Shown here piece after piece: positions 41,522-63,274 of a DNA stretch of 64,000 nt. Numbering within the stretch: the stretch's first letter is position 1; the number at the start of each line of letters is the position of its first letter. The DNA comes from Promethearchaeota archaeon. GTDB lineage: Archaea > Asgardarchaeota > Lokiarchaeia > Sigyniarchaeales > SOKP01. The notes below the pieces were generated by a model. The model saw only the letters and a program-made list of their open reading frames with translations. It was not told where the DNA came from and did not search any database. The position numbers were made by a program, and so were the translations under genes. The stretch is from contig JBHLNF010000002.1 of the NCBI GenBank assembly GCA_048937405.1, positions 128,001 to 192,000 on the forward strand. Reading direction: 5' to 3'.

Positions 41522-44500
41522 TTACTTTTTATCATCAGTATGAATTACAATGTTTCCTCCTTGTAGTATGCCCAAGGGATCAAAACCAGCTCTATGATAT
41601 ATCTGTCCGATCTTGTCATAGACTTTTATCTGGAATACATCGTCTCCTTCATCGTTGTACTCATCCCAAACATCCACTCTCATCCTATAATTTCCCTCAC
41701 TCCAGGCAAGTTCTCCCGTTTTAGAGTTATATTTTTGAACAACGCATTTTGCTTCGAAAAAAGAGTGATTCCCTATAATAGCCATTCCCTCCCAAGCGTT
41801 TGACTTGATGATATACTCCCAATCACCTTCTCTATAGACATAAATCGCCTGACCTTTTGGGAGCCCATTCTTTTTATATTTTACATTGAACCCAAAGTTT
41901 CCTTTCCTTCCAGTTTCATCCCAAATCCATCCTCCACCTGTAACAAAATCACCTGTAGGTTCATAAATAGTGAGGGCAACCAAGTCCGAAGAATCTCCCT
42001 GATAGTAATCATTTAAACCAGGACTAAAGACGACTTTTATAAGATAACAGTTTTCTGGTAAATTAGGGACTTCAATTTCAAATACTCCTACTCCGTCAAC
42101 AAACGTAAATTCAACCATAAAGGGTCCATAAGATTCCTTTGGAACAAGTGAATCTGGCATAGGGCAATCGTAAATATAAAATGTAACATAAATTTTGTTG
42201 AGATCACCCCAGTAAAGATCAGCATCATCATAAACGGTCACTCTAAGTGTAATTGTATCTACAGTTGTAGGTATGACAGTAGAACCTGTATAGGTTAAAA
42301 CTACGAATTCTTTCTCTATGGTAAATCCAGCTGAATCAGAATCAGCTAGATACATACCATCCCCTTCAAACACCGCAGTAACAGTATAGAAATCGCCTGC
42401 TGGTTGGAGTAGTATGAGTTCAATGCTAGCAACACCAGAAGAATCTGTAACAACAGACACTGTTTGAGAACCTATGGTAAATATTATTGTTTTACCAGAG
42501 ATTGGGTCTCCTGTGACTACATCGAAGAGTTTAGCTTGAAGCTGGACAGGATCAGAGTAGAACCCACTAGTATCTCCTATATAGGTAAGGTCGCAGGTAT
42601 TTACAATCACATCCAATGATTTCATTCCTTCTGCATTACCAGCTTTATCGATACTATAATATTCAATCGTATGAAATCCTGCATCGGGTATTGTGAATGT
42701 GGTCATATCACCGTAGTGAGTAACCCAAGCACCATCATCTATGCGATATTTTATTGCAGCAACACCAAAACCATCACCATCCTGTGCTGTTATAACCAAT
42801 TCAGTAATAGCAGATATAAGATATGGTTCTTCTGTTCCTTGAAAAGGTGGGAGAATAGTAAGTGTAGATATTGGATCTGTTATATCCTTAACTGTAACCA
42901 TTAAGCTATCGATTCCTACCCCTCCATCATCATCAACTATCTTTAGATACACTGTATAGATACCAGGTACCTGATAAACATGAGTTGGTTTTAATGTATC
43001 TGATTTCACATAACCAGCTCCTTCCCCAAAATTCCAGTAATAGGTGTATTCATCTGCTCCAGGATCGGTGAAACTTCCACTGAAAAAAGTGGTATCTCCC
43101 TCGTTAATTTCCTGATCTGATCCTGCTATGGATGTAGGGGCTACATTGGAAACCGTAATATTTATTGGAGTAAGATAAACTACGTGTAGATCCTCAATAT
43201 TAACTGAACATCCAGGCATGAATGTAACAATATTAGTTCTTGATTGACCAACAATTCTAAACTGCATAGAACCATCGTCCCTATAATAGTCATCTGAACT
43301 ATTCGTCCAAGATACATCCCAAGATTTATCTGCCGCCTTAAGACCGGTTTTTTGCCAAATTAAAATCCAATTTTCTTGATCGTCTTGTACGTATAGCTTC
43401 ACATATCCACCATAATCAAATAAACTATTTGTATAATTTATCCTACATTCAACTCTATATGAATCTGGTGGCATAGTGTTGTCATAATATGGATTTATAA
43501 AACAGAAATTAAGGTTTGCTCTGGTAGTTGATGTATCTAAAATCGCGCATGGGAACCCTGTAATATCGAAATTTCCATTACCCCTATTGTTTCCACCATG
43601 ACTTGACAAAAAAACTTTAAACTCAGGTGTAAATGACTGATAGAAAGCATATTTTCTACCATCATCATCTTCTACTATTATGTTAATAATATAATCATCA
43701 TATGGTGTTCCACTAGGATTATCATCTGAGTATGTATGTGTCTCAGAAATTGAATTGGTACCTGCGGGATAGTTAAATTCCTCTAGTGGTGAACCATCGC
43801 CCCAGTCTATAGTTACTAGAAACGTATCTAATGTACTAGGATCTTTAATTGTCGCAGATAAAGTACACCTGCTTCCCTCATCAATAGACGTAGCACTCAA
43901 TCCATCAAGTATAGGATCGACATTAACTATAATAATACTAGCCAATGCTGTATCTGTGTGTAAAGAATTGGAAACCTCTACCATAACGGTTCCCGAATAA
44001 TCATCAGACCAGGTTCCCGAATAAGCATCAGACCAGATTGGATTATCGCTCCAAGGAGTATCCCATTTTCCATCATTTTCAAAATCCCATCTATATAGAA
44101 GTGGATCTCCATTAAGGTCAAAAGAATCGCTTGCATCTAAAGTTACATGTGATCCTTCATCACCATAATACGGACCACCAGCACTCGGTATAGGCTTATA
44201 ATTTACTTTTACGCGCAAATCCTTAATTTTAACATAACAGGTAGGCATGTCACCTGGAGTACCAGTATGAGATTCACCAACAATTTTAAATTGCATAGAA
44301 CCATCATATCTATAAAACTCATCTGTATTAAAAAACAGTTCTACAGGCCATGTTTTTTCTTCAGAGGGCAACCCCCCAGAACAGTAGATATTTCCCCTAC
44401 CCCATACCCCTTCCCATTCCCCATCATCCCGTTGTATGTATAGTGTTACATTTCCAAGATTGTCATTTCTCGATACCAACGGAGGAAATAATATATTATT

Positions 44501-46555
44501 ACTATAAGTAACAGTACAACTAATTGTATAGGAGTCTGGTGCGCCATAATCTCCAAAATAAGGATTATTAAAACCGAAATTAAGCCTAGCCTGGGTACCT
44601 GAGTAATATGCACCTCCCTGGTGGTATTTCCCTCTTATCGAGAGATTTCCATTACCCATGTTATCAAGCTGAGAATCTAGAACTTCAACTGTGTAGAAAA
44701 CAGGATACTGATTTATATAATCTAAAAATTCCTCGGTTTTACAATACTGACCAACAGTATACACTCCATCTTTAGGAAAGAGGTCATCAGAAGCATAATT
44801 TAAATGAACGCGTAGATTATATATCTCAACTCTTACAGTTGGTTTTCTTGAAACAAGGAGATCTGGAGAATCTATGGACTCACCGACAATTTTAAAATTC
44901 ATAGAACCATCGTCCCTATAGTACTCATCTGAAGTTTCTGTCCATGTTACATTAAACCATGTTTCATCTGTACTACTAAGACCGGTCTTTTCCCATATTG
45001 AAATCCAGTTTTCTTGATCGTCCTGTACATATAGCTTTACATATCCATTCTTATCATTTCCATTATCATAAGTAATAGTGCATTTAACTATATATGAATC
45101 TGGTGGGCCAGAATTTTCATAATAGGGATTAATAAAGCCGAAATTAAGCCTTGCTCTAGTAGTGGAGGTATCACCAAGGGCTGCTAGATACCCTTCAATA
45201 TGGAAATGTCCATTACCCATGTTATCAAGGTTCGTAGATACTATATTTTCAACTTTATACTCGGATGTATAATACTGACCAACAGTATACACTTCTTCTA
45301 TAGGAAATATGTCTTCTTGGGAGTAATCTATTTCTACGCGTAAATCTTCAATCGTAACCTCACATTTAGCGCTACCACCATCAATATCAGTAATAGATTG
45401 GCCGACAAGTTTAAAATTCATAGAACCATCGCCCCTTAAATATTCAAATGAATTATTAGTCCATGATCGATCTTGCCATTGCTTAAAGCCGAGACTAAGA
45501 CCATATTTCTCAAATATAGGAATCCACGCTCCATCATCTCGTAATATATATAGAACCACATTTCCATCAATACCCCAATTAAAAGATGTGATAGAAAATT
45601 TAACTGTATATGTGGGGCGACCATCATCGACATGAAGGGGATTATTCACTCCGAAAGTAAGACTTGCTTTGGGATTAATGTTTTTAATGAAAGGGGGTAT
45701 ATACAATCCTTCAATAATAAAATGCCCATTACCCATATTATCATTACCTTGAGATAATGTATTTACAAGATCTTCGGGGTTATATTTCTGCCCAATTGTA
45801 TACAACTCTTCTATAGGAAGTAAGTTATCAATATCATATTTTAGTTCAACACGTAGATTGGTAATCTTAACTCTAACAGAAGGGTATTGTGGAAGACCCG
45901 GGGAATAGGTTATAGACTCACCGACAATTTTAAAATTCATAGAACCATCGTCCCTATAGTACTCATCTGAAAGCATCCGTTCTACATGCCATTTTTCAGC
46001 TACCCCATCAAGATCATATTGTTCAAATATAGGAAACCATTCTCCATCATCTCGTACAATGGATAGAATTACGGATCCATTAATGTCATTCCAATTATTA
46101 TATGACACATCACATTTAACAGTATAAGAAGCTGGTATGCCAGAGTTTTTATAATAGGGATTATTAAAACCAAAATTAAGCCTTGCTCTGGTAGTGCAGG
46201 TATCAAAAGGAGCCGCCATGGGCCCACTAATATGGAAATGTCCATTACCCATATTATCAAGGCTCTGAGATAATATATCGGCTACTTTATTCTCGGATTT
46301 ATAATATTGACCGACAGCATATACCTCTTTATCAATATAGGTTGGATTAGATAGTGCTAAATTATTTTCTATATTTTCAGCTTTATTTTCATCTACGTCT
46401 TTATCAATGTAGGTTGGATTAGATAATGGTAAATTTTTTTCTTTATGTTTATCAGCATCGTATATAGGGCTTGTCCCTACCATTGTACCAATAAATATTA
46501 AAAGAGAAAAAATTATAATTAATCTTTTTTTTACAGAAGAAATCATTGATTTCAC
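41522..46555 (-). CDS. Large secreted protein with five copies of a ~175-aa repeat, PKD/Ig-like domains and C-terminal beta domain
   Basis: Signal peptide; five R.DGSM.F..VG.S repeats; PKD motifs YRWDF..DG, IDWGDG, YYWNFGEG; FVTGGGWI...FGFNVKY C-terminus. Confidence 0.85.
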   Translation of the reverse strand: MKSMISSVKKRLIIIFSLLIFIGTMVGTSPIYDADKHKEKNLPLSNPTYIDKDVDENKAENIENNLALSNPTYIDKEVYAVGQYYKSENKVADILSQSLDNMGNGHFHISGPMAAPFDTCTTRARLNFGFNNPYYKNSGIPASYTVKCDVSYNNWNDINGSVILSIVRDDGEWFPIFEQYDLDGVAEKWHVERMLSDEYYRDDGSMNFKIVGESITYSPGLPQYPSVRVKITNLRVELKYDIDNLLPIEELYTIGQKYNPEDLVNTLSQGNDNMGNGHFIIEGLYIPPFIKNINPKASLTFGVNNPLHVDDGRPTYTVKFSITSFNWGIDGNVVLYILRDDGAWIPIFEKYGLSLGFKQWQDRSWTNNSFEYLRGDGSMNFKLVGQSITDIDGGSAKCEVTIEDLRVEIDYSQEDIFPIEEVYTVGQYYTSEYKVENIVSTNLDNMGNGHFHIEGYLAALGDTSTTRARLNFGFINPYYENSGPPDSYIVKCTITYDNGNDKNGYVKLYVQDDQENWISIWEKTGLSSTDETWFNVTWTETSDEYYRDDGSMNFKIVGESIDSPDLLVSRKPTVRVEIYNLRVHLNYASDDLFPKDGVYTVGQYCKTEEFLDYINQYPVFYTVEVLDSQLDNMGNGNLSIRGKYHQGGAYYSGTQARLNFGFNNPYFGDYGAPDSYTISCTVTYSNNILFPPLVSRNDNLGNVTLYIQRDDGEWEGVWGRGNIYCSGGLPSEEKTWPVELFFNTDEFYRYDGSMQFKIVGESHTGTPGDMPTCYVKIKDLRVKVNYKPIPSAGGPYYGDEGSHVTLDASDSFDLNGDPLLYRWDFENDGKWDTPWSDNPIWSDAYSGTWSDDYSGTVMVEVSNSLHTDTALASIIIVNVDPILDGLSATSIDEGSRCTLSATIKDPSTLDTFLVTIDWGDGSPLEEFNYPAGTNSISETHTYSDDNPSGTPYDDYIINIIVEDDDGRKYAFYQSFTPEFKVFLSSHGGNNRGNGNFDITGFPCAILDTSTTRANLNFCFINPYYDNTMPPDSYRVECRINYTNSLFDYGGYVKLYVQDDQENWILIWQKTGLKAADKSWDVSWTNSSDDYYRDDGSMQFRIVGQSRTNIVTFMPGCSVNIEDLHVVYLTPINITVSNVAPTSIAGSDQEINEGDTTFFSGSFTDPGADEYTYYWNFGEGAGYVKSDTLKPTHVYQVPGIYTVYLKIVDDDGGVGIDSLMVTVKDITDPISTLTILPPFQGTEEPYLISAITELVITAQDGDGFGVAAIKYRIDDGAWVTHYGDMTTFTIPDAGFHTIEYYSIDKAGNAEGMKSLDVIVNTCDLTYIGDTSGFYSDPVQLQAKLFDVVTGDPISGKTIIFTIGSQTVSVVTDSSGVASIELILLQPAGDFYTVTAVFEGDGMYLADSDSAGFTIEKEFVVLTYTGSTVIPTTVDTITLRVTVYDDADLYWGDLNKIYVTFYIYDCPMPDSLVPKESYGPFMVEFTFVDGVGVFEIEVPNLPENCYLIKVVFSPGLNDYYQGDSSDLVALTIYEPTGDFVTGGGWIWDETGRKGNFGFNVKYKKNGLPKGQAIYVYREGDWEYIIKSNAWEGMAIIGNHSFFEAKCVVQKYNSKTGELAWSEGNYRMRVDVWDEYNDEGDDVFQIKVYDKIGQIYHRAGFDPLGILQGGNIVIHTDDKK

Positions 46556-47446: not shown

Positions 47447-47974
47447 TTGTCATACACTTCGACATATAAAATAGTAATATTTGGAGATAGTCAAACGGGT
47501 AAAACCACATTAACTCATAGGTTTTTAACGAATTTATTTAAAGAAGACATTACAATGACACTCGGAGTAGATTTTCATCTTAAAACCATTGAATCAGATG
47601 GAGAGATGGTAAAACTTCAAATATGGGATTTTGCAGGGGAAGAACGATTTAGATTTTTATTTCCTTCTTATATAAAAGGTGCCAATGGTGCTGTTTTTAT
47701 GTATGACATTACTAATTATGGATCACTTGCTCATGTAGATGATTGGTTTGAAATCATAGAAAAAGAAATCGACTATGAATTACCTATAATTTTTGTTGGT
47801 GGAAAAACAGATTTAATTCATTTAAAAGAAGTTTCTACAAGAAAGGCAATGGATTTGGCTGGAAGCAAAGGAGCAAATGGATTTATAGAATGTAGTTCAA
47901 AAACTGGTGAAAATATTGCTAAGATTTTTGATTTATTAACAAAATTAATTCTTAGAAATAGAAATTCAATATAG
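47447..47974 (+). CDS. Rab-like small GTPase
   Basis: GDSQTGKT, TLGVDF, WDFAGEERF, GKTD, CSSK. Confidence 0.92.
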   Translation: MSYTSTYKIVIFGDSQTGKTTLTHRFLTNLFKEDITMTLGVDFHLKTIESDGEMVKLQIWDFAGEERFRFLFPSYIKGANGAVFMYDITNYGSLAHVDDWFEIIEKEIDYELPIIFVGGKTDLIHLKEVSTRKAMDLAGSKGANGFIECSSKTGENIAKIFDLLTKLILRNRNSI

Positions 47975-49304: not shown

Positions 49305-51353
49305 ATGTCGAATTTAAAAGTTAAAAAAGTAATAATTTTCAAACATGGAGTCTCATATTACATTCTTGAAGGTATTTTAAAAGGATCTGGTAAATTCGAG
49401 CTTGAATTTAAGATTGATGAAATGAATGATATTTTAAAATCACTATTTGTAATGGATACAAGTAAAAAAGGATATATTTCATCAATATCTTATGATGCTG
49501 CATTAGAAACGAGTCAATTACTTAGATCAATTATGTTAAATATCCCTGATAGAGATTCTTTTTCTTCCCTAGTAACACAAATTAAAGGTGCTGATGTAGA
49601 TCTTACTATTGGAGGTGCTAAAAAAATATCAGGAAAGATAATGGGAATTGAATCTGTTGAAAAAATTAGTAAAAGTGAGAAAACTACTGAGAAATATTTA
49701 GTGCTTCTACAAGATAATGATGTGATTTCAGAATATAACTTCTCTGAAATTCGCTCTCTGGACATTAAGAATGAAGAGATAAAAAAGGATTTGAAATTTT
49801 TCCTAGATACTGTAATTGCAGGAAAAAAAAAAGACGCAAAAAAAATCATAATTAATTCTGAATCTGGTGGGGATGATGAAATTGAAAGAAATATCTTTGT
49901 ATCTTATATTCGTGAAAGTCCTATCTGGAAAACATCATATCGGTTAATAATGAGTAAACAACAAGCATTAGAGCAAAAATGTCTCCTTTCTGGTTGGAGT
50001 CTTATAGAAAATACCACAAATCAAGATTGGGAAGATATTGAGTTATCATTGGTTGCGGGAATGCCTGTTTCATTTGTGTATGATTTTTATAGACCGATTT
50101 TTATCCAGAGACCGATAATTCAACCTCCAAAAGTATTAAGTGCCCGTCCTACTGAAATTGAAGAAGGATTAGAAATGGATAAATTTACAGAGTATGCTAT
50201 GGAAAAGGAAGTAGCAATACCCGCTCGAGAAAGAAAAGCTAAAGCAAGAGTAGCTACGACAGGAGCACAAGCTCCTAAGAGAGCTGTATTTAAGAGTGAA
50301 TATAAGCCAACTCTGACGTCTGAAGATGTTTTTATGGATAAACTTACATCACAAACAAAAACTCAAACCAAAGACTTAGGAGAATTATTTGAATATAATA
50401 TTTCAAATCCAGTTACTATTAAAAGAAAACAATCTGCGCTTGTTCCAATTCTTACAGAATCAATTAAGGCAAAAAGAATTTTATTATATAATAAAAATGA
50501 GCATGATAAAAATCCTAATGCTTGTCTAGAAATAACGAATAATACTGATTTAACTCTTGAAAGTGGTCCAGTTACAATTATCTATGACGATAATCTAGCA
50601 GGAGAAGCAATAATTCCTTTCTTAAATAAAGAAGATACGAGGTTATTAAATTTTGCCGTAGAACAAGCAGTGATTATAACACATGAACAAAAATCTGAGA
50701 ATTTAAGTGTTCATAGAGTCACATTTGGTAGTGGTTATTCTTATGAATATTATTTCACGAATATGACTACTGAATATAAAATTAAAAATAAAACTGACGA
50801 AGAAAAGGAACTATACCTAGATCATCCAAAGACTCACGAGTTCAAATTCATAGAAAAACCTGTTGAACCCGAAGAAACGCCTAATTATTGGCGATTCAAA
50901 TTGGCACTAAAACCAAAAGATGCTGTAAGTTTTAAACTGAAAGAACAAAGAGAAAATTACTCCAGTAATTACTTGTGGAATTATAACAAAGATGATCTTC
51001 TAAAACGCGTCGGTTTTTATGTAAAACATAAGTTTATTGATCCAGATTTAGAAATTAAGTTAAAAGAAATCGCAGAATTAATTCAAACTTTAAACGGCTT
51101 AAGATCTAAAGAAGAAAAACTTAGAGAAGAACGAGATTTAATGACTGATGAACAAGTAAGGCTTAGAGAAAATATCGCGGTATTAGGAAAAGATAGTCAA
51201 TCTATTTCGTTAAAGGAAAGATATATACAAAAATTGAATATTCAAGAGAGTAGATTTGAAGAAATAAATAAAGAACTTAAAATTTTAGAAAAGAAAATTA
51301 AAGAACTGAATATAGATATAGAAAATAAAATGAATCTACTTTCAACTCCGTAA
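49305..51353 (+). CDS. DUF4139-like protein
   Basis: FKHGVSY, MNDILKSL, PIWKTSYRL, N.T.QDW..IELSLVAG.P, LGELFEY. Confidence 0.75.
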   Translation: MSNLKVKKVIIFKHGVSYYILEGILKGSGKFELEFKIDEMNDILKSLFVMDTSKKGYISSISYDAALETSQLLRSIMLNIPDRDSFSSLVTQIKGADVDLTIGGAKKISGKIMGIESVEKISKSEKTTEKYLVLLQDNDVISEYNFSEIRSLDIKNEEIKKDLKFFLDTVIAGKKKDAKKIIINSESGGDDEIERNIFVSYIRESPIWKTSYRLIMSKQQALEQKCLLSGWSLIENTTNQDWEDIELSLVAGMPVSFVYDFYRPIFIQRPIIQPPKVLSARPTEIEEGLEMDKFTEYAMEKEVAIPARERKAKARVATTGAQAPKRAVFKSEYKPTLTSEDVFMDKLTSQTKTQTKDLGELFEYNISNPVTIKRKQSALVPILTESIKAKRILLYNKNEHDKNPNACLEITNNTDLTLESGPVTIIYDDNLAGEAIIPFLNKEDTRLLNFAVEQAVIITHEQKSENLSVHRVTFGSGYSYEYYFTNMTTEYKIKNKTDEEKELYLDHPKTHEFKFIEKPVEPEETPNYWRFKLALKPKDAVSFKLKEQRENYSSNYLWNYNKDDLLKRVGFYVKHKFIDPDLEIKLKEIAELIQTLNGLRSKEEKLREERDLMTDEQVRLRENIAVLGKDSQSISLKERYIQKLNIQESRFEEINKELKILEKKIKELNIDIENKMNLLSTP

Positions 51354-51417
51354 AATCAAAAATTTTTCTTTTTTTTCTAATTAATTTAATATTTTAGTTA
51401 ATTTACAATCATTAGGG

Positions 51418-52146
51418 ATGGTTATAAAAACAGTAAATATTGGTTTTAGAAGTCTAATATACCGAAGTGGATGGATGTATAATGCAATAACCCGTAGATT
51501 ATATGATCAAGATAAAAAATTCTCTCTTATTGCAAAAATTATAGGTAAAGGGCCAAAAAGAGTTTTAGATTTACCTTGTGGTACAGGTTATTTATTAAGA
51601 TTTTTGGATCCTTCAATAGAATATGAAGGTGCGGATCTTAACTATAGATTTCTAAGAAGAATTAGAAGTAAAGAATTAAATAAAAGAAATATCAGATTAT
51701 CAAAAATAATTTTATATCAAAAGAATATTTTTGATTTTAAAAATTATTTGGGAAAGAAAAAGGATGTAATTGTGCTTTGCGATATTCTACATCATATATA
51801 CCCTAGACATATTGAATTAATCAATATAGCCAAGAGAATTGCTAATAAAATTGTTATATGCGAGCCTTATGTAATTCAACCAAGAGAAATTACTGCTCGT
51901 GATAAATTGCTCAAAATTGTGATATTGTTTGGTAAATATTTACCAAAACCTTTATTCAAGATAAGTGATTATTTATTTTTAGATAACGACGGAATTAACT
52001 CTTATCAAATGAGATTAAGATGGAATTTTAACAAGAAAAGTCTTAAATTTTTTCTAAAAACTATGGGATTTAATAATATATATGAAATATTAGATGAATA
52101 TATTGCTATTTGGGAAACAAAAGATATTATAGAGGTACAAGCATAA
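51418..52146 (+). CDS. Class I SAM-dependent methyltransferase
   Basis: VLDLPCGTG, GADLN, ILHH, EP. Confidence 0.85.
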   Translation: MVIKTVNIGFRSLIYRSGWMYNAITRRLYDQDKKFSLIAKIIGKGPKRVLDLPCGTGYLLRFLDPSIEYEGADLNYRFLRRIRSKELNKRNIRLSKIILYQKNIFDFKNYLGKKKDVIVLCDILHHIYPRHIELINIAKRIANKIVICEPYVIQPREITARDKLLKIVILFGKYLPKPLFKISDYLFLDNDGINSYQMRLRWNFNKKSLKFFLKTMGFNNIYEILDEYIAIWETKDIIEVQA

Positions 52147-52148
52147 GT

Positions 52149-52826
52149 ATGATAAAGATCACTCTTTCTCTATGGGATACAGGAGGACAAGAACGGTTTG
52201 ACTTTTTTAAAACCGATTTTTTCAAAGGTGTTGCTGTACTTGGTTTAGTCTTCGATTTAAGTCGTCCAGATACTTTTGATGAAATTAATTTGTATTTTAA
52301 AGAAATGCGAAAACAATCGGGTAATATCCCAATTTTTTTAATAGGAAATAAAAATGATCTAAAAAAAGACGTAGGAGAAGCCATCTCTAGAGACAAAATT
52401 ATCCAAACAGTAAATCGGTATTATTTATTTGAGTATATTGAAACTTCCGCTCTGGATAATGAGAATGTAGAACGGTTATTTCACCGACTAGCTATTACAG
52501 CTTTATTGGATTTAAGACCTCGTCTGGGTGAAATTATAGATCCTACTCATTTCAGATTCAAAGTTCTATTAGCGGGAGCTGCTGCTGTTGGGAAATCTTC
52601 CTTAATAAGAACCTTTGCCAAAAAAGAGTTTGAAGAAGATTATAAATTGACAGTTGGATTAGATTTCATGACCCAAACTCTTGAATTCGATGAAGATGAT
52701 ATCCCTGATGAAACACATGAATTAATCAAAAAATCCATTAAAGATTATAAAAAAATTGCAAAGAAATATCGCAAAAGAGAAGAAATATCTGAGATCATAG
52801 AAACTCTAAAGGAAATTGAACAATAA
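52149..52826 (+). CDS. Circularly permuted Rab-like GTPase (G3-G4-G5-G1-G2)
   Basis: Order WDTGGQERF, GNKND, ETSAL, then GAAAVGKSS, YKLTVGLDF; ATG 2 nt after upstream stop. Confidence 0.85.
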   Translation: MIKITLSLWDTGGQERFDFFKTDFFKGVAVLGLVFDLSRPDTFDEINLYFKEMRKQSGNIPIFLIGNKNDLKKDVGEAISRDKIIQTVNRYYLFEYIETSALDNENVERLFHRLAITALLDLRPRLGEIIDPTHFRFKVLLAGAAAVGKSSLIRTFAKKEFEEDYKLTVGLDFMTQTLEFDEDDIPDETHELIKKSIKDYKKIAKKYRKREEISEIIETLKEIEQ

Positions 52827-53983: not shown

Positions 53984-54190
53984 ATGAGTATTGATGAATT
54001 ACAAGAAGAGGTAGATAAGCTTTTAGAAGAAATGGATGAACTTCAAGAGGTATGTGATACTCTTCCTCAATGTGAAGAGGATGATGGATGCGCTACTTGT
54101 GAAACGAATAAAAAAATTGAAGAATTAGAACAAAAAATTGAAGATCTTGAAAATAAAATTGAAAAATTGATGGGAGAAGAAGAGGAATAA
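53984..54190 (+). CDS. Small acidic coiled-coil protein with four Cys
   Basis: CDTLPQC...CATC between two heptad helices. Confidence 0.7.
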   Translation: MSIDELQEEVDKLLEEMDELQEVCDTLPQCEEDDGCATCETNKKIEELEQKIEDLENKIEKLMGEEEE

Positions 54191-54280: not shown

Positions 54281-55567
54281 TTACAAATTCTTAAATTGAT
54301 TTCTCAAGTTTCTTGACATAATTAATTGTTGGATTTGTCTCGCACCTCCGATAATTTCCTGAATTCGAGAAATGTTCACATAATCTTGCATCATTGTATT
54401 ATCACACAAACCTGCACCTCCCATAAGATTGGCCGCTTCATAACAAACTTTTCTAGAAAGCAAGGCACAATTGTATTTATATTCACTTCCAAAAGCTACA
54501 AATGCTCTTGAAATATTATCTGGTAATTGTGCATTATACTTTTCCATTTTTTCATCATATTTTTCAGCAAATTTTAAGATACCATGTGTAAGTGATGTCG
54601 TTTTAGCCCACAGATCGGTCAATGGAAAGCCTACCCCTTGATGGAGCAAGACCTCCTTATCAAATTGTTTTCTCAAGTTTGTATAAATTACTGCAATTGA
54701 AAGAGCGCCCCAACATTCACTTATACCTCTTGTTGAGATTGAAATTCTCTCAGGGACCAATCCCTCAAAAAGATGCTCCCTTCCTTTACCAATCCCACCT
54801 AGTATATATTCTTTTGGAACTCGTAAATTAACCAATGTTTCTTTGCCAAGATATAATTTTGGAACATAAGGAATAAATACCCTATCGCAATTCCATCCAT
54901 CCCAAGAGGTGTTTATGAGAAATTGTCCCATAACGTTTCCATTGTTTTGTTCAGCAGTAGCATAAGATACAGCCCATTTTGCTCTAGGTGCGTTTGTATT
55001 ATATACTTTTTCACCGTTTAATAGAAAACTGCCATCTTCCTGTTCTTGACAGGTAGTTAATTGGTGGACCGCATCAGAACCTCTCTCTGGTTCAGTAATT
55101 AATAGACATCCTGTATATTCTCCAGTTACTAACTCTTTTAATGCTTCAAGACGTACTGGAACATTTTCATGATGAAAATAAATAGGGTTTACACAAATAA
55201 CCGTAGCACCGCTTCCCATCGCAAATTGAGGATCAAATAAATCAAGAGCCAATATTCTCATAAAATCTATAGCCATTCCGTGTTCTTTATAATTTAAATC
55301 GATGCAATTATAGTCAAATTGACGAGTTATGTAACCTTGTTTTCCAAAAGCAGGATACCAATCATATATATCTTCATTTGGTCCATGTGTGAGTTTATTC
55401 TGCTCTTCAAATTGTAAACAAAAATCCTCAACTTCTTTAAGAAAGGCGAATTGACTTTCAGTAAGAATTGGAAATAAATTATCATTAAGATAGTTGTATC
55501 TATTTCTTAGATTTAATTTCCCTAATATTTCGTCATTAATAACCTGTGTTTCAAATCGTTTTTGCAT
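54281..55567 (-). CDS. Acyl-CoA dehydrogenase
   Basis: ITEPERGSD, LNGEK..NTN, RKQF, MGGAG, EI.GG. Confidence 0.92.
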   Translation of the reverse strand: MQKRFETQVINDEILGKLNLRNRYNYLNDNLFPILTESQFAFLKEVEDFCLQFEEQNKLTHGPNEDIYDWYPAFGKQGYITRQFDYNCIDLNYKEHGMAIDFMRILALDLFDPQFAMGSGATVICVNPIYFHHENVPVRLEALKELVTGEYTGCLLITEPERGSDAVHQLTTCQEQEDGSFLLNGEKVYNTNAPRAKWAVSYATAEQNNGNVMGQFLINTSWDGWNCDRVFIPYVPKLYLGKETLVNLRVPKEYILGGIGKGREHLFEGLVPERISISTRGISECWGALSIAVIYTNLRKQFDKEVLLHQGVGFPLTDLWAKTTSLTHGILKFAEKYDEKMEKYNAQLPDNISRAFVAFGSEYKYNCALLSRKVCYEAANLMGGAGLCDNTMMQDYVNISRIQEIIGGARQIQQLIMSRNLRNQFKNL

Positions 55568-55750: not shown

Positions 55751-57049
55751 ATGACTGAAAATAAAAAGTTTGAAACCCAAGTAATTAATGACGCAATTTT
55801 AGAAAAGTTAAGTCTTAAATACCGCTATACTTTTTTGAATAGTAATTTAAGTTCGATATTATCAGAAGATCAATTTAAATTTATTCAGAAGGTTCAGCAG
55901 TTTTGCCTACAATTTGAAGAAAAGAATAAAATTACTCACGGGATGAATGAGGATATATATGATTGGATGGCACCATTTGGAGCAGAAGGATATGTCACAA
56001 GGGCTCATGATTTTAAATTCCTTGATGTAGATTTTCCTGAGTGGGGATTAGTAGCAGATCTTCTTCGATATATTGCTGTAGACAATTTTGATCCTCAATT
56101 TGCTATGGCTATTGGAGCTACAGTTTTGGCAATAAATCCTGTATATGAACACCATGAAAATATTCCTATACGGCTTGAGGCTTTAAAAGGTATGGTTACA
56201 GGTAAAGCAGTAGGGGGAATTCTTATTACTGAACCTGAACGAGGTTCTGATGCGGTCCATCAATTAACTACCTGTGAAGAACAGGAAGATGGCAGTTTTC
56301 TATTAAACGGTGAAAAAGTATTCAATACCAATGTCCCCAAATCACAATGGGTAGTTGCTTATGCTACTACTGAACAAAATAATGCAAATACAATGGCTCA
56401 ATTTTTGATAAATACATCATGGGATGGCTGGAGTTGTGAACGTGCAGGAATACCATGGACCCCTAAAGTATTTATAGGAAAAGAGAAATTAGAAAATCTC
56501 AGAGTTCCTAAAGAATGCGTCTTAGGCCCTGTTGGTAAAGGGAGAGAACATCTTTTTGAAGGTCTCGTACCTGAACGCATTGGAATTGCGGTTGGTGCTG
56601 TTGCACAATGTTGGGGTGCTTTAACACACGCCGCAATATATTCTAGTTTGAGAAAACAATTCAATCAAGAGATCTTAAAATTTCAGGGTGTTGGATTTCC
56701 ATTGACCGATCTCTGGGCCAGAACCTCAAATATAACATTTGGATTACTCAAATTCTGTGAAAGTTATGATGAGTTATTTAATAAATATGAAGGAAAAATC
56801 CCACCAAATGTAAGCCGAAATATGGTTCTAAATGCATCTCAATTTAAATATCAGGCTACAAACTTATCAAAAGAAGTTTGTTACGAAGCGGCTAATCTTA
56901 TGGGAGGAGCAGGCTTATCAGATAATACATTAATGCACGATTATGTTGGTATTTCTCGAATTCAGGAGATTGTTGGTGGAAGCAGACAAATTCAACAATA
57001 TATTATGAATGGACACCTTTTATCCTTAAATAAAAGGCTACTTGCATAG
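55751..57049 (+). CDS. Acyl-CoA dehydrogenase (paralogue)
   Basis: Same motifs. Confidence 0.92.
   Translation: MTENKKFETQVINDAILEKLSLKYRYTFLNSNLSSILSEDQFKFIQKVQQFCLQFEEKNKITHGMNEDIYDWMAPFGAEGYVTRAHDFKFLDVDFPEWGLVADLLRYIAVDNFDPQFAMAIGATVLAINPVYEHHENIPIRLEALKGMVTGKAVGGILITEPERGSDAVHQLTTCEEQEDGSFLLNGEKVFNTNVPKSQWVVAYATTEQNNANTMAQFLINTSWDGWSCERAGIPWTPKVFIGKEKLENLRVPKECVLGPVGKGREHLFEGLVPERIGIAVGAVAQCWGALTHAAIYSSLRKQFNQEILKFQGVGFPLTDLWARTSNITFGLLKFCESYDELFNKYEGKIPPNVSRNMVLNASQFKYQATNLSKEVCYEAANLMGGAGLSDNTLMHDYVGISRIQEIVGGSRQIQQYIMNGHLLSLNKRLLA
56231..56304. repeat. 74-bp tract identical (inverted) to 58095-58168 and near-identical to 55004-55083
   Basis: Direct base-by-base comparison. Confidence 0.85.
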
Positions 57050-57355: not shown

Positions 57356-58639
57356 TTAGAGCATTTTAAAGATTTGTCTTAAAGCCATGCTCATAATATA
57401 TTGCTGGATTTGCCTACTCCCACCGACGATTTCTTGAATTCGAGAAATATTTACATAATCCTGCATTAATGTATTATCAGATAAGCCTGCTCCTCCCATA
57501 AGATTAGCAGCTTCGTAACAAATTTGTTTAGAAAGATTGGTGCAATGATACTTAAACTGAGAAGCGCTTGCAACCATAGCACGGCTTATATTAACAGGAA
57601 TATGACCCTCAAATTTTTCCATTTTTTCATCATATGATTCACAAAACTTGAGTATACCAAGAGTCAAATTTGTAGTTTTTGCCCATAAATCTGTTAAAAG
57701 AAAGCCAACTCCCTGGAATTTGAGGATCTCTTGATTGAATTGTTTTCTCAAATTAGCATATATAGCAGCGTGAGATACGGCACCCCAACATTGTGCTATA
57801 GCACCAACCGCGATTCCAATACGTTCAGGTACGAGCCCTTCAAAAAGATGTTCTCGACCTTTACCAACAGGTCCCAATATATATTCTTTAGGAACTTTAA
57901 GATTTTCTAAATGCTCATGACCAAGAAATAATTTATCTACATAAGGAATGTACACTCTATCACATTTCCATCCTTCCCATACGGTATTTACTAAGAATTG
58001 AGCCATTAAATTACCGTTATTTTGTTCTGCGGTAGCATATATTACAGCCCATTTTGATTTAGGAGCATTTGTGTTATATATTTTTTCACCATTCAATAGA
58101 AAACTGCCATCTTCCTGTTCTTCACAGGTAGTTAATTGATGGACCGCATCAGAACCTCGTTCAGGTTCTGTTATACATATACAACCAGATGATTTACCTG
58201 TAACCATGTCTTTTAATGCTTCAAGCCGTTCAGAAATATTTTCATGGTGCTCATACACAGGATTTATCGCTAAAACCGTAGCACCAATTCCCATTGCAAA
58301 TTGAGGATCAAAACTATCTACTGCAAGATATCGAAGGAAATCTGCTACAGCACCATAATATTCATATGTAATATCAATCATATCAAAATTGTGAGATCTT
58401 GTGATATAACCATCTGCTCCAAATGCTGGAGCCCAATCATATACGTCCTCCCCTGGTCCATGTGTGATTTCATTTTTTTTCTCAAATCTAAGACAAAATT
58501 TTTGAACTTTTTTTAGAAAATTAAATTGTTCAGGGGAAAGTATCGCAATTAAATTATTATTTACAAACGAATATCGATTTTTAAGGCTCAATTTCTCAAG
58601 TATTTCATCATTAATTGCTTGATTCATAAACTTTGCCAT
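57356..58639 (-). CDS. Acyl-CoA dehydrogenase (paralogue)
   Basis: Same motifs. Confidence 0.92.
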   Translation of the reverse strand: MAKFMNQAINDEILEKLSLKNRYSFVNNNLIAILSPEQFNFLKKVQKFCLRFEKKNEITHGPGEDVYDWAPAFGADGYITRSHNFDMIDITYEYYGAVADFLRYLAVDSFDPQFAMGIGATVLAINPVYEHHENISERLEALKDMVTGKSSGCICITEPERGSDAVHQLTTCEEQEDGSFLLNGEKIYNTNAPKSKWAVIYATAEQNNGNLMAQFLVNTVWEGWKCDRVYIPYVDKLFLGHEHLENLKVPKEYILGPVGKGREHLFEGLVPERIGIAVGAIAQCWGAVSHAAIYANLRKQFNQEILKFQGVGFLLTDLWAKTTNLTLGILKFCESYDEKMEKFEGHIPVNISRAMVASASQFKYHCTNLSKQICYEAANLMGGAGLSDNTLMQDYVNISRIQEIVGGSRQIQQYIMSMALRQIFKML

Positions 58640-62743: not shown

Positions 62744-63274
62744 TCATAAGTTTTTGACTAGTTCTCTCGCTAATAACTCAAAAGCTAAATCGACATTTTC
62801 CCCTGTTTTAGAAGAAATTTTTATGAATTCTAATAAATTATACTCATCTTTATAATATGAGATGTACTCTTCATTTATCATAATTTCTTCTGTTAAATCT
62901 AGTTTCGTACCTATAAACATAATTGGAATTTTAATGTCATTTGGTTGACAAATATTAATCCATTCATCTATTCGCTCCAAACTTGAAATTCTGGTAAGAT
63001 CAAAAAGCAATAATGCCCCTCTAGCCCCTACTGCATATGTCTTTAACAAGGGTCTGAAATGATCTTGACCTCCAAAATCCCATATTTGAAGGAGAATTTT
63101 TTTTCCTTCGATCTCAATCTCTTTGAGAAAAAACTCTACTCCAATTGTAAGACGTGTGTCAGCAAGAAAAACACCTTCAACGTATCTATGTAGAAGAGTA
63201 GTTTTTCCAACACCCCCTTCCCCACATGTGATAACTTTTAATAGGATTGGCTTAGAGTTAGTCCTGTTTATCAT
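62744..63274 (-). CDS. Rab-like small GTPase
   Basis: GEGGVGKT, TIGVEF, WDFGGQ, TKLD, SSK. Confidence 0.92.
   Translation of the reverse strand: MINRTNSKPILLKVITCGEGGVGKTTLLHRYVEGVFLADTRLTIGVEFFLKEIEIEGKKILLQIWDFGGQDHFRPLLKTYAVGARGALLLFDLTRISSLERIDEWINICQPNDIKIPIMFIGTKLDLTEEIMINEEYISYYKDEYNLLEFIKISSKTGENVDLAFELLARELVKNL

Follow-up and report, generated by a model that had tools for sequence, protein, structure and literature searches.

The window analyzed here is a stretch of 64,000 nucleotides from a Promethearchaeota archaeon (contig JBHLNF010000002.1, positions 128,001 to 192,000). On its forward strand lie a gene for a 682-amino-acid protein with a weak match to DUF4139 and a C-terminal coiled coil (49305 to 51353), a gene for a 242-amino-acid class I SAM methyltransferase (51418 to 52146), and the complete coding sequence of a RasL/Rab-like small GTPase of 225 amino acids (52149 to 52826), for which we found about 130 colinear homologs in independently assembled genomes. 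The GTPase reading frame runs from the ATG at 52149 to the TAA at 52824 to 52826. We assigned the start to this ATG and not to the TTG upstream at 52110 because homologs share that methionine, which stands two or three residues ahead of strand beta3 in the aligned homologs.

The chain begins with strand beta3, followed by the G3 motif and switch II (WDTGGQ; 52149 to 52190), and continues through G4 (NKND, residues 67 to 70; 52347 to 52358) and G5 (ETSAL, residues 98 to 102; 52440 to 52454) to helix alpha5, with which a canonical G domain ends (residues 107 to 120; 52467 to 52508), as delimited by DSSP on the AlphaFold2 (AF2) model and by VIA alignment. A conserved linker (residues 121 to 135; 52509 to 52553) then joins alpha5 to strand beta1 and the P-loop, or G1 motif (GAAAVGKS, residues 143 to 150; 52554 to 52598), which were located by Pfam, phmmer, and alignment. 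Next come switch I with the G2 motif (YKLTVGLDF) and strand beta2 (residues 172 to 180), together at 52641 to 52688, as placed by phmmer, alignment, and AF2. The protein ends in a helix (residues 187 to 224; 52707 to 52820), seen in the AF2 model and in the sequence, with a basic amphipathic stretch at approximately residues 190 to 209. Each motif is present in one intact copy, including DTGGQ at residues 10 to 14 and T168 of G2, and their order is G3-G4-G5-G1-G2 instead of the canonical G1-G2-G3-G4-G5, with the break at the beta2/beta3 (interswitch) hairpin. Across 45 homologs, the Ras-superfamily motifs GxxxxGKS, T168, DxxGQ, NKxD, and ETSA are invariant or nearly so; D10, G13, Q14, K68, D70, S100, A101, G143, G148, K149, and T168 do not vary at all.

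Profile and pairwise comparisons recover the same arrangement. The Pfam Ras profile (PF00071) matches the protein with an E value of 1.4e-35 and a score of 122.7 bits (cutoff, 21.6). The match is split into two stretches in swapped order, and residues 3 to 115 correspond to profile positions 47 to 157. When the protein was compared with the PDB by phmmer, residues 5 to 115 aligned with Rab11 residues 58 to 166 (beta3 to helix 5, containing G3, G4, and G5), and residues 135 to 183 aligned with Rab11 residues 6 to 54 (beta1/P-loop, helix 1, switch I, and beta2). The best sequence matches were Rab11 (E = 8e-25) and a Thorarchaeota Rab (PDB 7EZB; E = 5e-22), and the matches to the Pfam families RsgA and MMR_HSR1 were P-loop fragments below cutoff. 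An earlier reading of this DNA from its letters alone (the sequence-only reading) had described a Rab-like GTPase cut at the interswitch, with all five motifs intact and single, a linker of about 15 residues, and a charged final helix, and in each of these respects it agrees with the swapped Pfam and Rab11 alignments and with the features located above.

Blocks resembling the RabF motifs of canonical Asgard RasL/Rab proteins and of Rab11/Ypt31 (VGLDF, LSLW, and LVFDLS) are visible by eye in the permuted GTPase. Whereas eukaryotic Rabs are prenylated at a C-terminus that follows helix 5, the C-terminus here follows beta2; moreover, the protein contains no cysteine, and the C-terminal cysteine prenylation motif of Rabs is absent. 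The P-loop has alanine at the positions of Ras G12 and G13, substitutions that might alter hydrolysis. The protein most likely binds and hydrolyzes GTP as a molecular switch. The 4.47-Mb source genome encodes this single permuted GTPase alongside approximately 55 canonical small GTPases, several of which are clustered on the same contig. Nearby canonical genes are at 47447 to 47974 (forward strand; a 175-amino-acid Ras-family protein, Pfam E = 3e-45), at 62744 to 63274 (reverse strand), and from about 63812 to the end of the window (reverse strand).

Two other kinds of permuted GTPase are relevant to this motif order. In the YlqF/YawG (YRG) family the order is G4-G5-G1-G2-G3, as the sequence-only reading had stated, with the cut between beta3 and helix 2 (PMC2430557). 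Like the Lokiarchaeal protein, these are permuted P-loop GTPases that fold into a normal G domain, but they belong to a different, non-Ras-like GTPase class and serve as ancient factors in ribosome assembly. Their order does not apply here, where G3 precedes G4 and is N-terminal. In eukaryotic cpRAS, the order is G3-G4-G5-G1-G2, broken in the turn between beta2 and beta3 (Elias and Novotny 2008, PMC2430557), and cpRAS was defined in that work to correct an earlier claim that such a permutation could not fold (PMC2430557). The sequence-only reading had attributed the YlqF/YawG order to cpRAS as well, which is incorrect, and had called the present arrangement "the other permutation." Because cpRAS has exactly the order found here, that description does not hold for the Lokiarchaeal protein.

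Nor is this the first Lokiarchaeal example to be recorded. Table S3 of Vargova et al. 2024 (bioRxiv 10.1101/2024.02.28.582541) annotates Lokiarch_00500 (KKK41097.1) and Lokiarch_45850 (KKK43026.1), both from Lokiarchaeota archaeon GC14_75, as "RasL, circularly permuted sequence." Compared by eye, these proteins have the same motif order and nearly identical blocks at G3, G4, G5, the linker (GEIVD..H.RFKILLVG), the P-loop, G2, and the basic tail; they come from a different species of the shared lineage Lokiarchaeales, and their annotated N-termini are slightly longer. By sequence, they are plainly orthologs of the 225-amino-acid GTPase. The main text of Vargova et al. never mentions the permutation (the sequences were rotated for the trees) and does not cover its distribution, the transmembrane-anchored and long forms described below, structure, or selection. 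We found no other paper on circularly permuted Asgard GTPases in our literature search, and two further papers devoted to Asgard GTPases do not bring the permutation up. The novelty claimed by the sequence-only reading is thus lost to the cpRAS order known since 2008 and to the orthologs flagged in Table S3.

The rearranged chain is predicted to close in cis

The AF2 monomer prediction, made with an alignment of 45 sequences, reached a pLDDT of 82.8 and a pTM of 0.79, with all five models between 81 and 83. Its strands follow the chain in the order beta3, beta4, beta5, beta6, a short linker strand (residues 129 to 131), beta1 (134 to 143), and beta2 (172 to 180), after which comes the long helix of residues 187 to 224. 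Only in switch I (residues 160 to 170) does pLDDT fall below 50, and the switch II block (residues 11 to 20) averages 55; at beta1 and across the beta1-alpha1-beta2 segment it is about 89. Residues 1 to 123 superimpose on approximately residues 57 to 180 of Rab and Rho structures with an rmsd of 1.5 to 1.9 Å and Z scores of 12 to 13 in VIA, a sequential aligner. Both Foldseek and VIA align sequentially and so cover approximately residues 1 to 125, not the position of beta1-alpha1-beta2, and in an Atlas shape search the part of canonical GTPases that could be aligned reached at most 150 residues. For the beta1-alpha1-beta2 segment, it is the model's confidence there that points to its taking the canonical place in cis. 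The sequence-only reading had left the choice between folding in cis and in trans undecided; the confident monomer model favors the former.

We considered whether the G domain is instead completed in trans, with beta2 of one chain pairing with beta3 of the next to form domain-swapped dimers or head-to-tail oligomers, perhaps with a coiled coil contributed by the C-terminal helix. Both chain ends lie at the hairpin, a geometry that could favor strand swapping, and hydrophobic residues in the C-terminal helix recur in a heptad-like pattern. However, the monomer is closed and confident in all five models, including at beta1, and the conserved linker of 15 residues is long enough for closure in cis. 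In addition, cpRAS domains with the same cut lie inside large single-chain proteins (PMC2430557). Completion in trans therefore strikes us as improbable. A prediction of the two-copy complex, with a 45-row alignment, scored 0.00 and speaks neither for nor against it.

A single permuted clade confined to one Lokiarchaeal lineage

A word-index search recovered 438 relatives of the permuted GTPase, the best 120 of which share 67 to 88% identity over approximately 90 to 100% of its length and are 197 to 277 amino acids long. When longer fused forms were sought with the same index, it returned just canonical or multidomain GTPases covering half of the query; the long permuted forms surfaced in an exhaustive search of 1.8 billion representatives. 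That search gave 34 proteins with E values below 1e-30. Some of these are permuted and colinear with the query, with lengths of 271 to 284 and 316 to 755 amino acids; the others are tandem multi-GTPase proteins, 29 to 36% identical to the query, in which the query aligns across the junction between two domains.

We then compared 150 G domains in a phylogenetic tree, for which 25 permuted members were un-permuted and the tandem proteins were split into their domains. All 25 permuted domains group together in a clade with an SH-aLRT of 99, itself divided into two subclades with good support. This clade is placed in an unresolved group of canonical archaeal-type GTPases; of the 50 domains taken from tandem proteins, 45 group in the opposite half of the tree. 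The simplest reading of the tree is a single permutation event.

Two possible sources of the rearrangement were considered and set aside. Tandem GTPases as duplication intermediates were rejected given their low identity and their position in the tree, and no close tandem intermediate was found by the exhaustive search or in the tree. Separately, the nearest canonical relatives (P0165, P0171, P0183, P0192, and P0233) have a degenerate G-like domain (FRFLIxGNE..), lacking a P-loop, behind their genuine G domain, and in some of them the C-terminal regions look TIR-like by eye. The degenerate domain was dropped as a source of the G1-G2 half because blastp found no similarity between the two.

The permuted gene has a narrow distribution. 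Colinear matches with E values of 1e-35 or lower occur in 67 of 399 genomes of the phylum. The gene is present in 63 of 133 genomes of the source organism's own family (within its genus, in 49 of 53) and in 3 of 14 genomes of a sister family belonging to the same taxonomic order; none of the other 31 families in the 399-genome scan has it. Since the matching genomes fall in two families only, we conclude that the family is a Lokiarchaeal lineage-specific invention and is not pan-Asgard. Submitter labels on some metagenome-assembled genomes (Odin-, Thor-, Hod-, and Hermodarchaeota) suggest a wide Asgard distribution, which we rejected; the "Odinarchaeota" contig behind locus L004, for example, matches genome G198, which the GTDB-based set places in the source's own genus.

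The identity of motif order and cut site raises the possibility that the Lokiarchaeal GTPase and eukaryotic cpRAS descend from a shared permutation event or are connected by gene transfer. Both are Ras-superfamily G domains with beta1-alpha1-beta2 placed after helix 5. Yet cpRAS is a member of the RAS family in the strict sense and has TIE as its G2 motif, whereas the Lokiarchaeal protein has a Rab-like LTVGLDF and finds its best matches in Rab11/Ypt31. Their protein contexts differ as well: cpRAS is described as eukaryote-specific and occurs in large proteins of 840 to 3,900 amino acids with VWA/Sec23-24 trunk or macroglobulin domains, whereas the Lokiarchaeal GTPase is either a free-standing protein or joined to a membrane anchor, and neither a VWA or macroglobulin-type domain nor any further Pfam domain was found in the 225-amino-acid protein or in the long forms scanned. 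Also against common descent are the confinement of the family to one order-level lineage of Lokiarchaea and the nesting of the permuted clade among canonical archaeal-type GTPases, albeit in a tree lacking cpRAS. We regard common descent as quite improbable. An origin independent of cpRAS is the likely reading of these sequence comparisons, in which cpRAS is set apart partly by its published description.

The permuted gene is intact and under purifying selection

The permuted order is identical across aligned samples of 18 and 45 sequences. Within the linker, G127 is invariant over the 45 sequences, and R125 and E128 are conserved in at least 90% of them. The gene is present at 33 loci in distinct species-level genomes, two of these loci on complete chromosomes. 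A Logan contig from a second study spans G4, the linker, and G1 with zero differences, and other Logan contigs bridge the junction between the methyltransferase and GTPase genes. Among 158 pairs of loci with dS between 0.1 and 1.5, the median pairwise dN/dS over the G domain is 0.10; the permuted GTPase is under strong purifying selection.

These observations bear on two doubts voiced by the sequence-only reading, which had proposed a look for Asgard homologs with the same order and linker and for sequence spanning the linker. Such homologs exist in Lokiarchaeal genomes, and the linker is spanned unchanged in an independent contig. The first doubt was that the protein is what remains of the middle of a tandem double GTPase, a case that we treated together with other nonfunctional remnants. 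Tandem Rab-like proteins do exist (P0140, P0144, P0148, and others), and the query is colinear across their domain junctions. Nevertheless, the catalytic residues are invariant and dN/dS is low, members of the family all begin exactly at beta3 with one copy of each motif, the tandems are just 29 to 36% identical and fall largely in the other half of the tree, and no relic flanks the gene, whose neighbors abut the reading frame. Together with the contigs, the dN/dS ratio and the tree for practical purposes refute a decayed tandem. The second doubt was an assembly chimera, which we considered along with a gene-calling artifact. We found no point in favor of either, and the same order at 33 loci and in 67 genomes, the spanning contigs of a second study, and the dN/dS of 0.10 exclude both, as well as a pseudogene.

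The methyltransferase is an accessory neighbor

As previously noted from the sequence, the GTPase lies 2 nt downstream of the methyltransferase gene: the TAA of the latter ends 2 nt before the ATG. Because of this short gap, cotranscription of the two genes in this genome is plausible. However, the methyltransferase is present at only 23 of the 33 related loci, and where it is absent (10 of 33), the 682-amino-acid DUF4139-like gene directly precedes the GTPase. In contigs from two metagenome runs, likewise, the end of the 682-amino-acid gene is followed immediately by the GTPase start with no methyltransferase in between (51354 to 52148), so strains with and without it co-occur. We therefore consider the methyltransferase an accessory insert and not an obligate partner, and obligate functional coupling of the two proteins is unlikely. 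The most constant upstream neighbor is the 682-amino-acid gene, found at 28 of the 33 loci with 54 to 89% identity. Look-alike clusters of this gene occur in Chloroflexota and Myxococcota.

In close relatives the gene order is the DUF4139-like gene, the methyltransferase, the GTPase, an HD-domain protein on the opposite strand, a 68-amino-acid protein, and acyl-CoA dehydrogenase paralogs. A more distant genus retains the dehydrogenases only, and in the sister family none of these neighbors accompanies the long forms. Since synteny fades beyond close kin, the neighborhood gives no firm clue to function. The 68-amino-acid protein (53984 to 54190, forward strand) is a strongly acidic coiled-coil protein with cysteines at positions 24, 30, 36, and 39 (C24, C30, C36, and C39) and is conserved downstream of the GTPase at 31 of the 33 loci; it could in principle pair with the basic helix of the GTPase. 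The three acyl-CoA dehydrogenase-like paralogs (427 to 432 amino acids) are at 54281 to 55567 (reverse strand), 55751 to 57049 (forward strand), and 57356 to 58639 (reverse strand), and their arrangement is conserved in relatives, including the distant genus that lacks the other synteny. An open reading frame of 1,677 codons (1677 aa; 41522 to 46555, reverse strand) lies approximately 5.6 kb upstream of the permuted gene.

Many family members carry a membrane anchor after beta2

We sorted 133 permuted sequences by length and by the presence of a hydrophobic segment after beta2. The majority, 106 of 133, are short (245 amino acids or fewer) and have no such segment, like the 225-amino-acid GTPase. 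Among those of intermediate length (246 to 330 amino acids), 19 of 20 end in a hydrophobic stretch of 19 to 22 residues with Lys/Arg ahead of it, which is the hallmark of tail anchors. The long forms (428 to 755 amino acids) add an acidic, proline-rich linker, a shared domain of approximately 150 residues, and hydrophobic helices. Long forms P0127, P0130, P0131, P0136, P0138, G144:C536:67-714, and G132:C17:213426-214022 belong to the sister family. The shared domain contains the blocks KQMNP.T.NKLSV, FPGC, PLDARKD, and TPTKVVKQT; it has no match in Pfam, and an Atlas feature search with the C-terminal domain of the long forms returned hypothetical Promethearchaeota proteins only. Transmembrane-bearing members occur in both deep subclades of the permuted clade. 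Because of this distribution, parsimony suggests that the family's ancestor probably already had a membrane anchor beyond beta2 and that the short form is derived.

In the 225-amino-acid GTPase (P0001), no segment after beta2 has a Kyte-Doolittle mean of at least 1.9, and the protein is thus not classed as tail anchored. Its tail is nonetheless amphipathic and basic, with a hydrophobic moment (muH) of 0.6 to 0.68 in 18-residue windows starting at residues 188 to 193 and a net charge of +5 over residues 196 to 212. From this helix and from the anchored relatives, we infer a role in peripheral membrane or partner binding.

Discussion

Based on these observations, we propose that the locus encodes a functional, cis-folding, permuted Asgard RasL GTPase of single origin, with a tail attached at the interswitch end, an explanation to which we assign a probability of about three in four. 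The chain would run from beta3 through switch II, G4, and G5 to alpha5, then through the 15-residue linker to the beta1/P-loop, alpha1, switch I, and beta2, and would close in cis as one ordinary G domain. The permutation would have arisen once, in the ancestor of one order-level lineage of Lokiarchaea. It would place the new C-terminus at the interswitch tip, adjoining both switch regions, and it is on this C-terminus that many members carry their membrane anchor, which is a transmembrane tail in some and a long linker followed by a membrane domain in others. The 225-amino-acid version would have lost the transmembrane segment and kept the basic amphipathic helix. The order of the elements, their conservation, the single origin, purifying selection, the confident cis model, and the transmembrane tails of relatives come directly from the analyses above; GTPase activity, membrane association of this particular copy, and coupling between nucleotide state and tail are inferred elements of the proposal.

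The permuted GTPase is uncharacterized rather than new, as this type of permutation was known in 2008 and its Lokiarchaeal orthologs were flagged in a supplement. The extent of the family, its single origin, the strong constraint on it, the conservation of its linker, and most notably how often it is fused to a transmembrane anchor at the interswitch end appear to be undescribed. Small GTPases are the most expanded of the "eukaryotic signature" proteins of Asgard archaea, and a question that they pose is how they contact membranes without prenylation. Here the order G3-G4-G5-G1-G2, once argued to be structurally impossible, is fixed and strongly selected in a prokaryote, and the permutation is often joined to a transmembrane anchor at the interswitch. 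The family thus offers a test case for how far the Ras fold tolerates a broken interswitch hairpin and for whether the position of a tether affects switch output.

A more speculative extension, which we think unlikely to hold in full, is that Lokiarchaea invented the beta2/beta3 cut independently of cpRAS, that its ancestral purpose was to suspend a G domain at the membrane from the tip of the interswitch, by a transmembrane tail anchor or membrane domain following beta2 directly, and that movements of switch I, the interswitch, and switch II that depend on the bound nucleotide are passed mechanically to the tether. If true, this would amount to an Arf-like logic of membrane coupling built on a Rab-like scaffold, and it would give Asgard small GTPases a means of membrane attachment free of prenylation.
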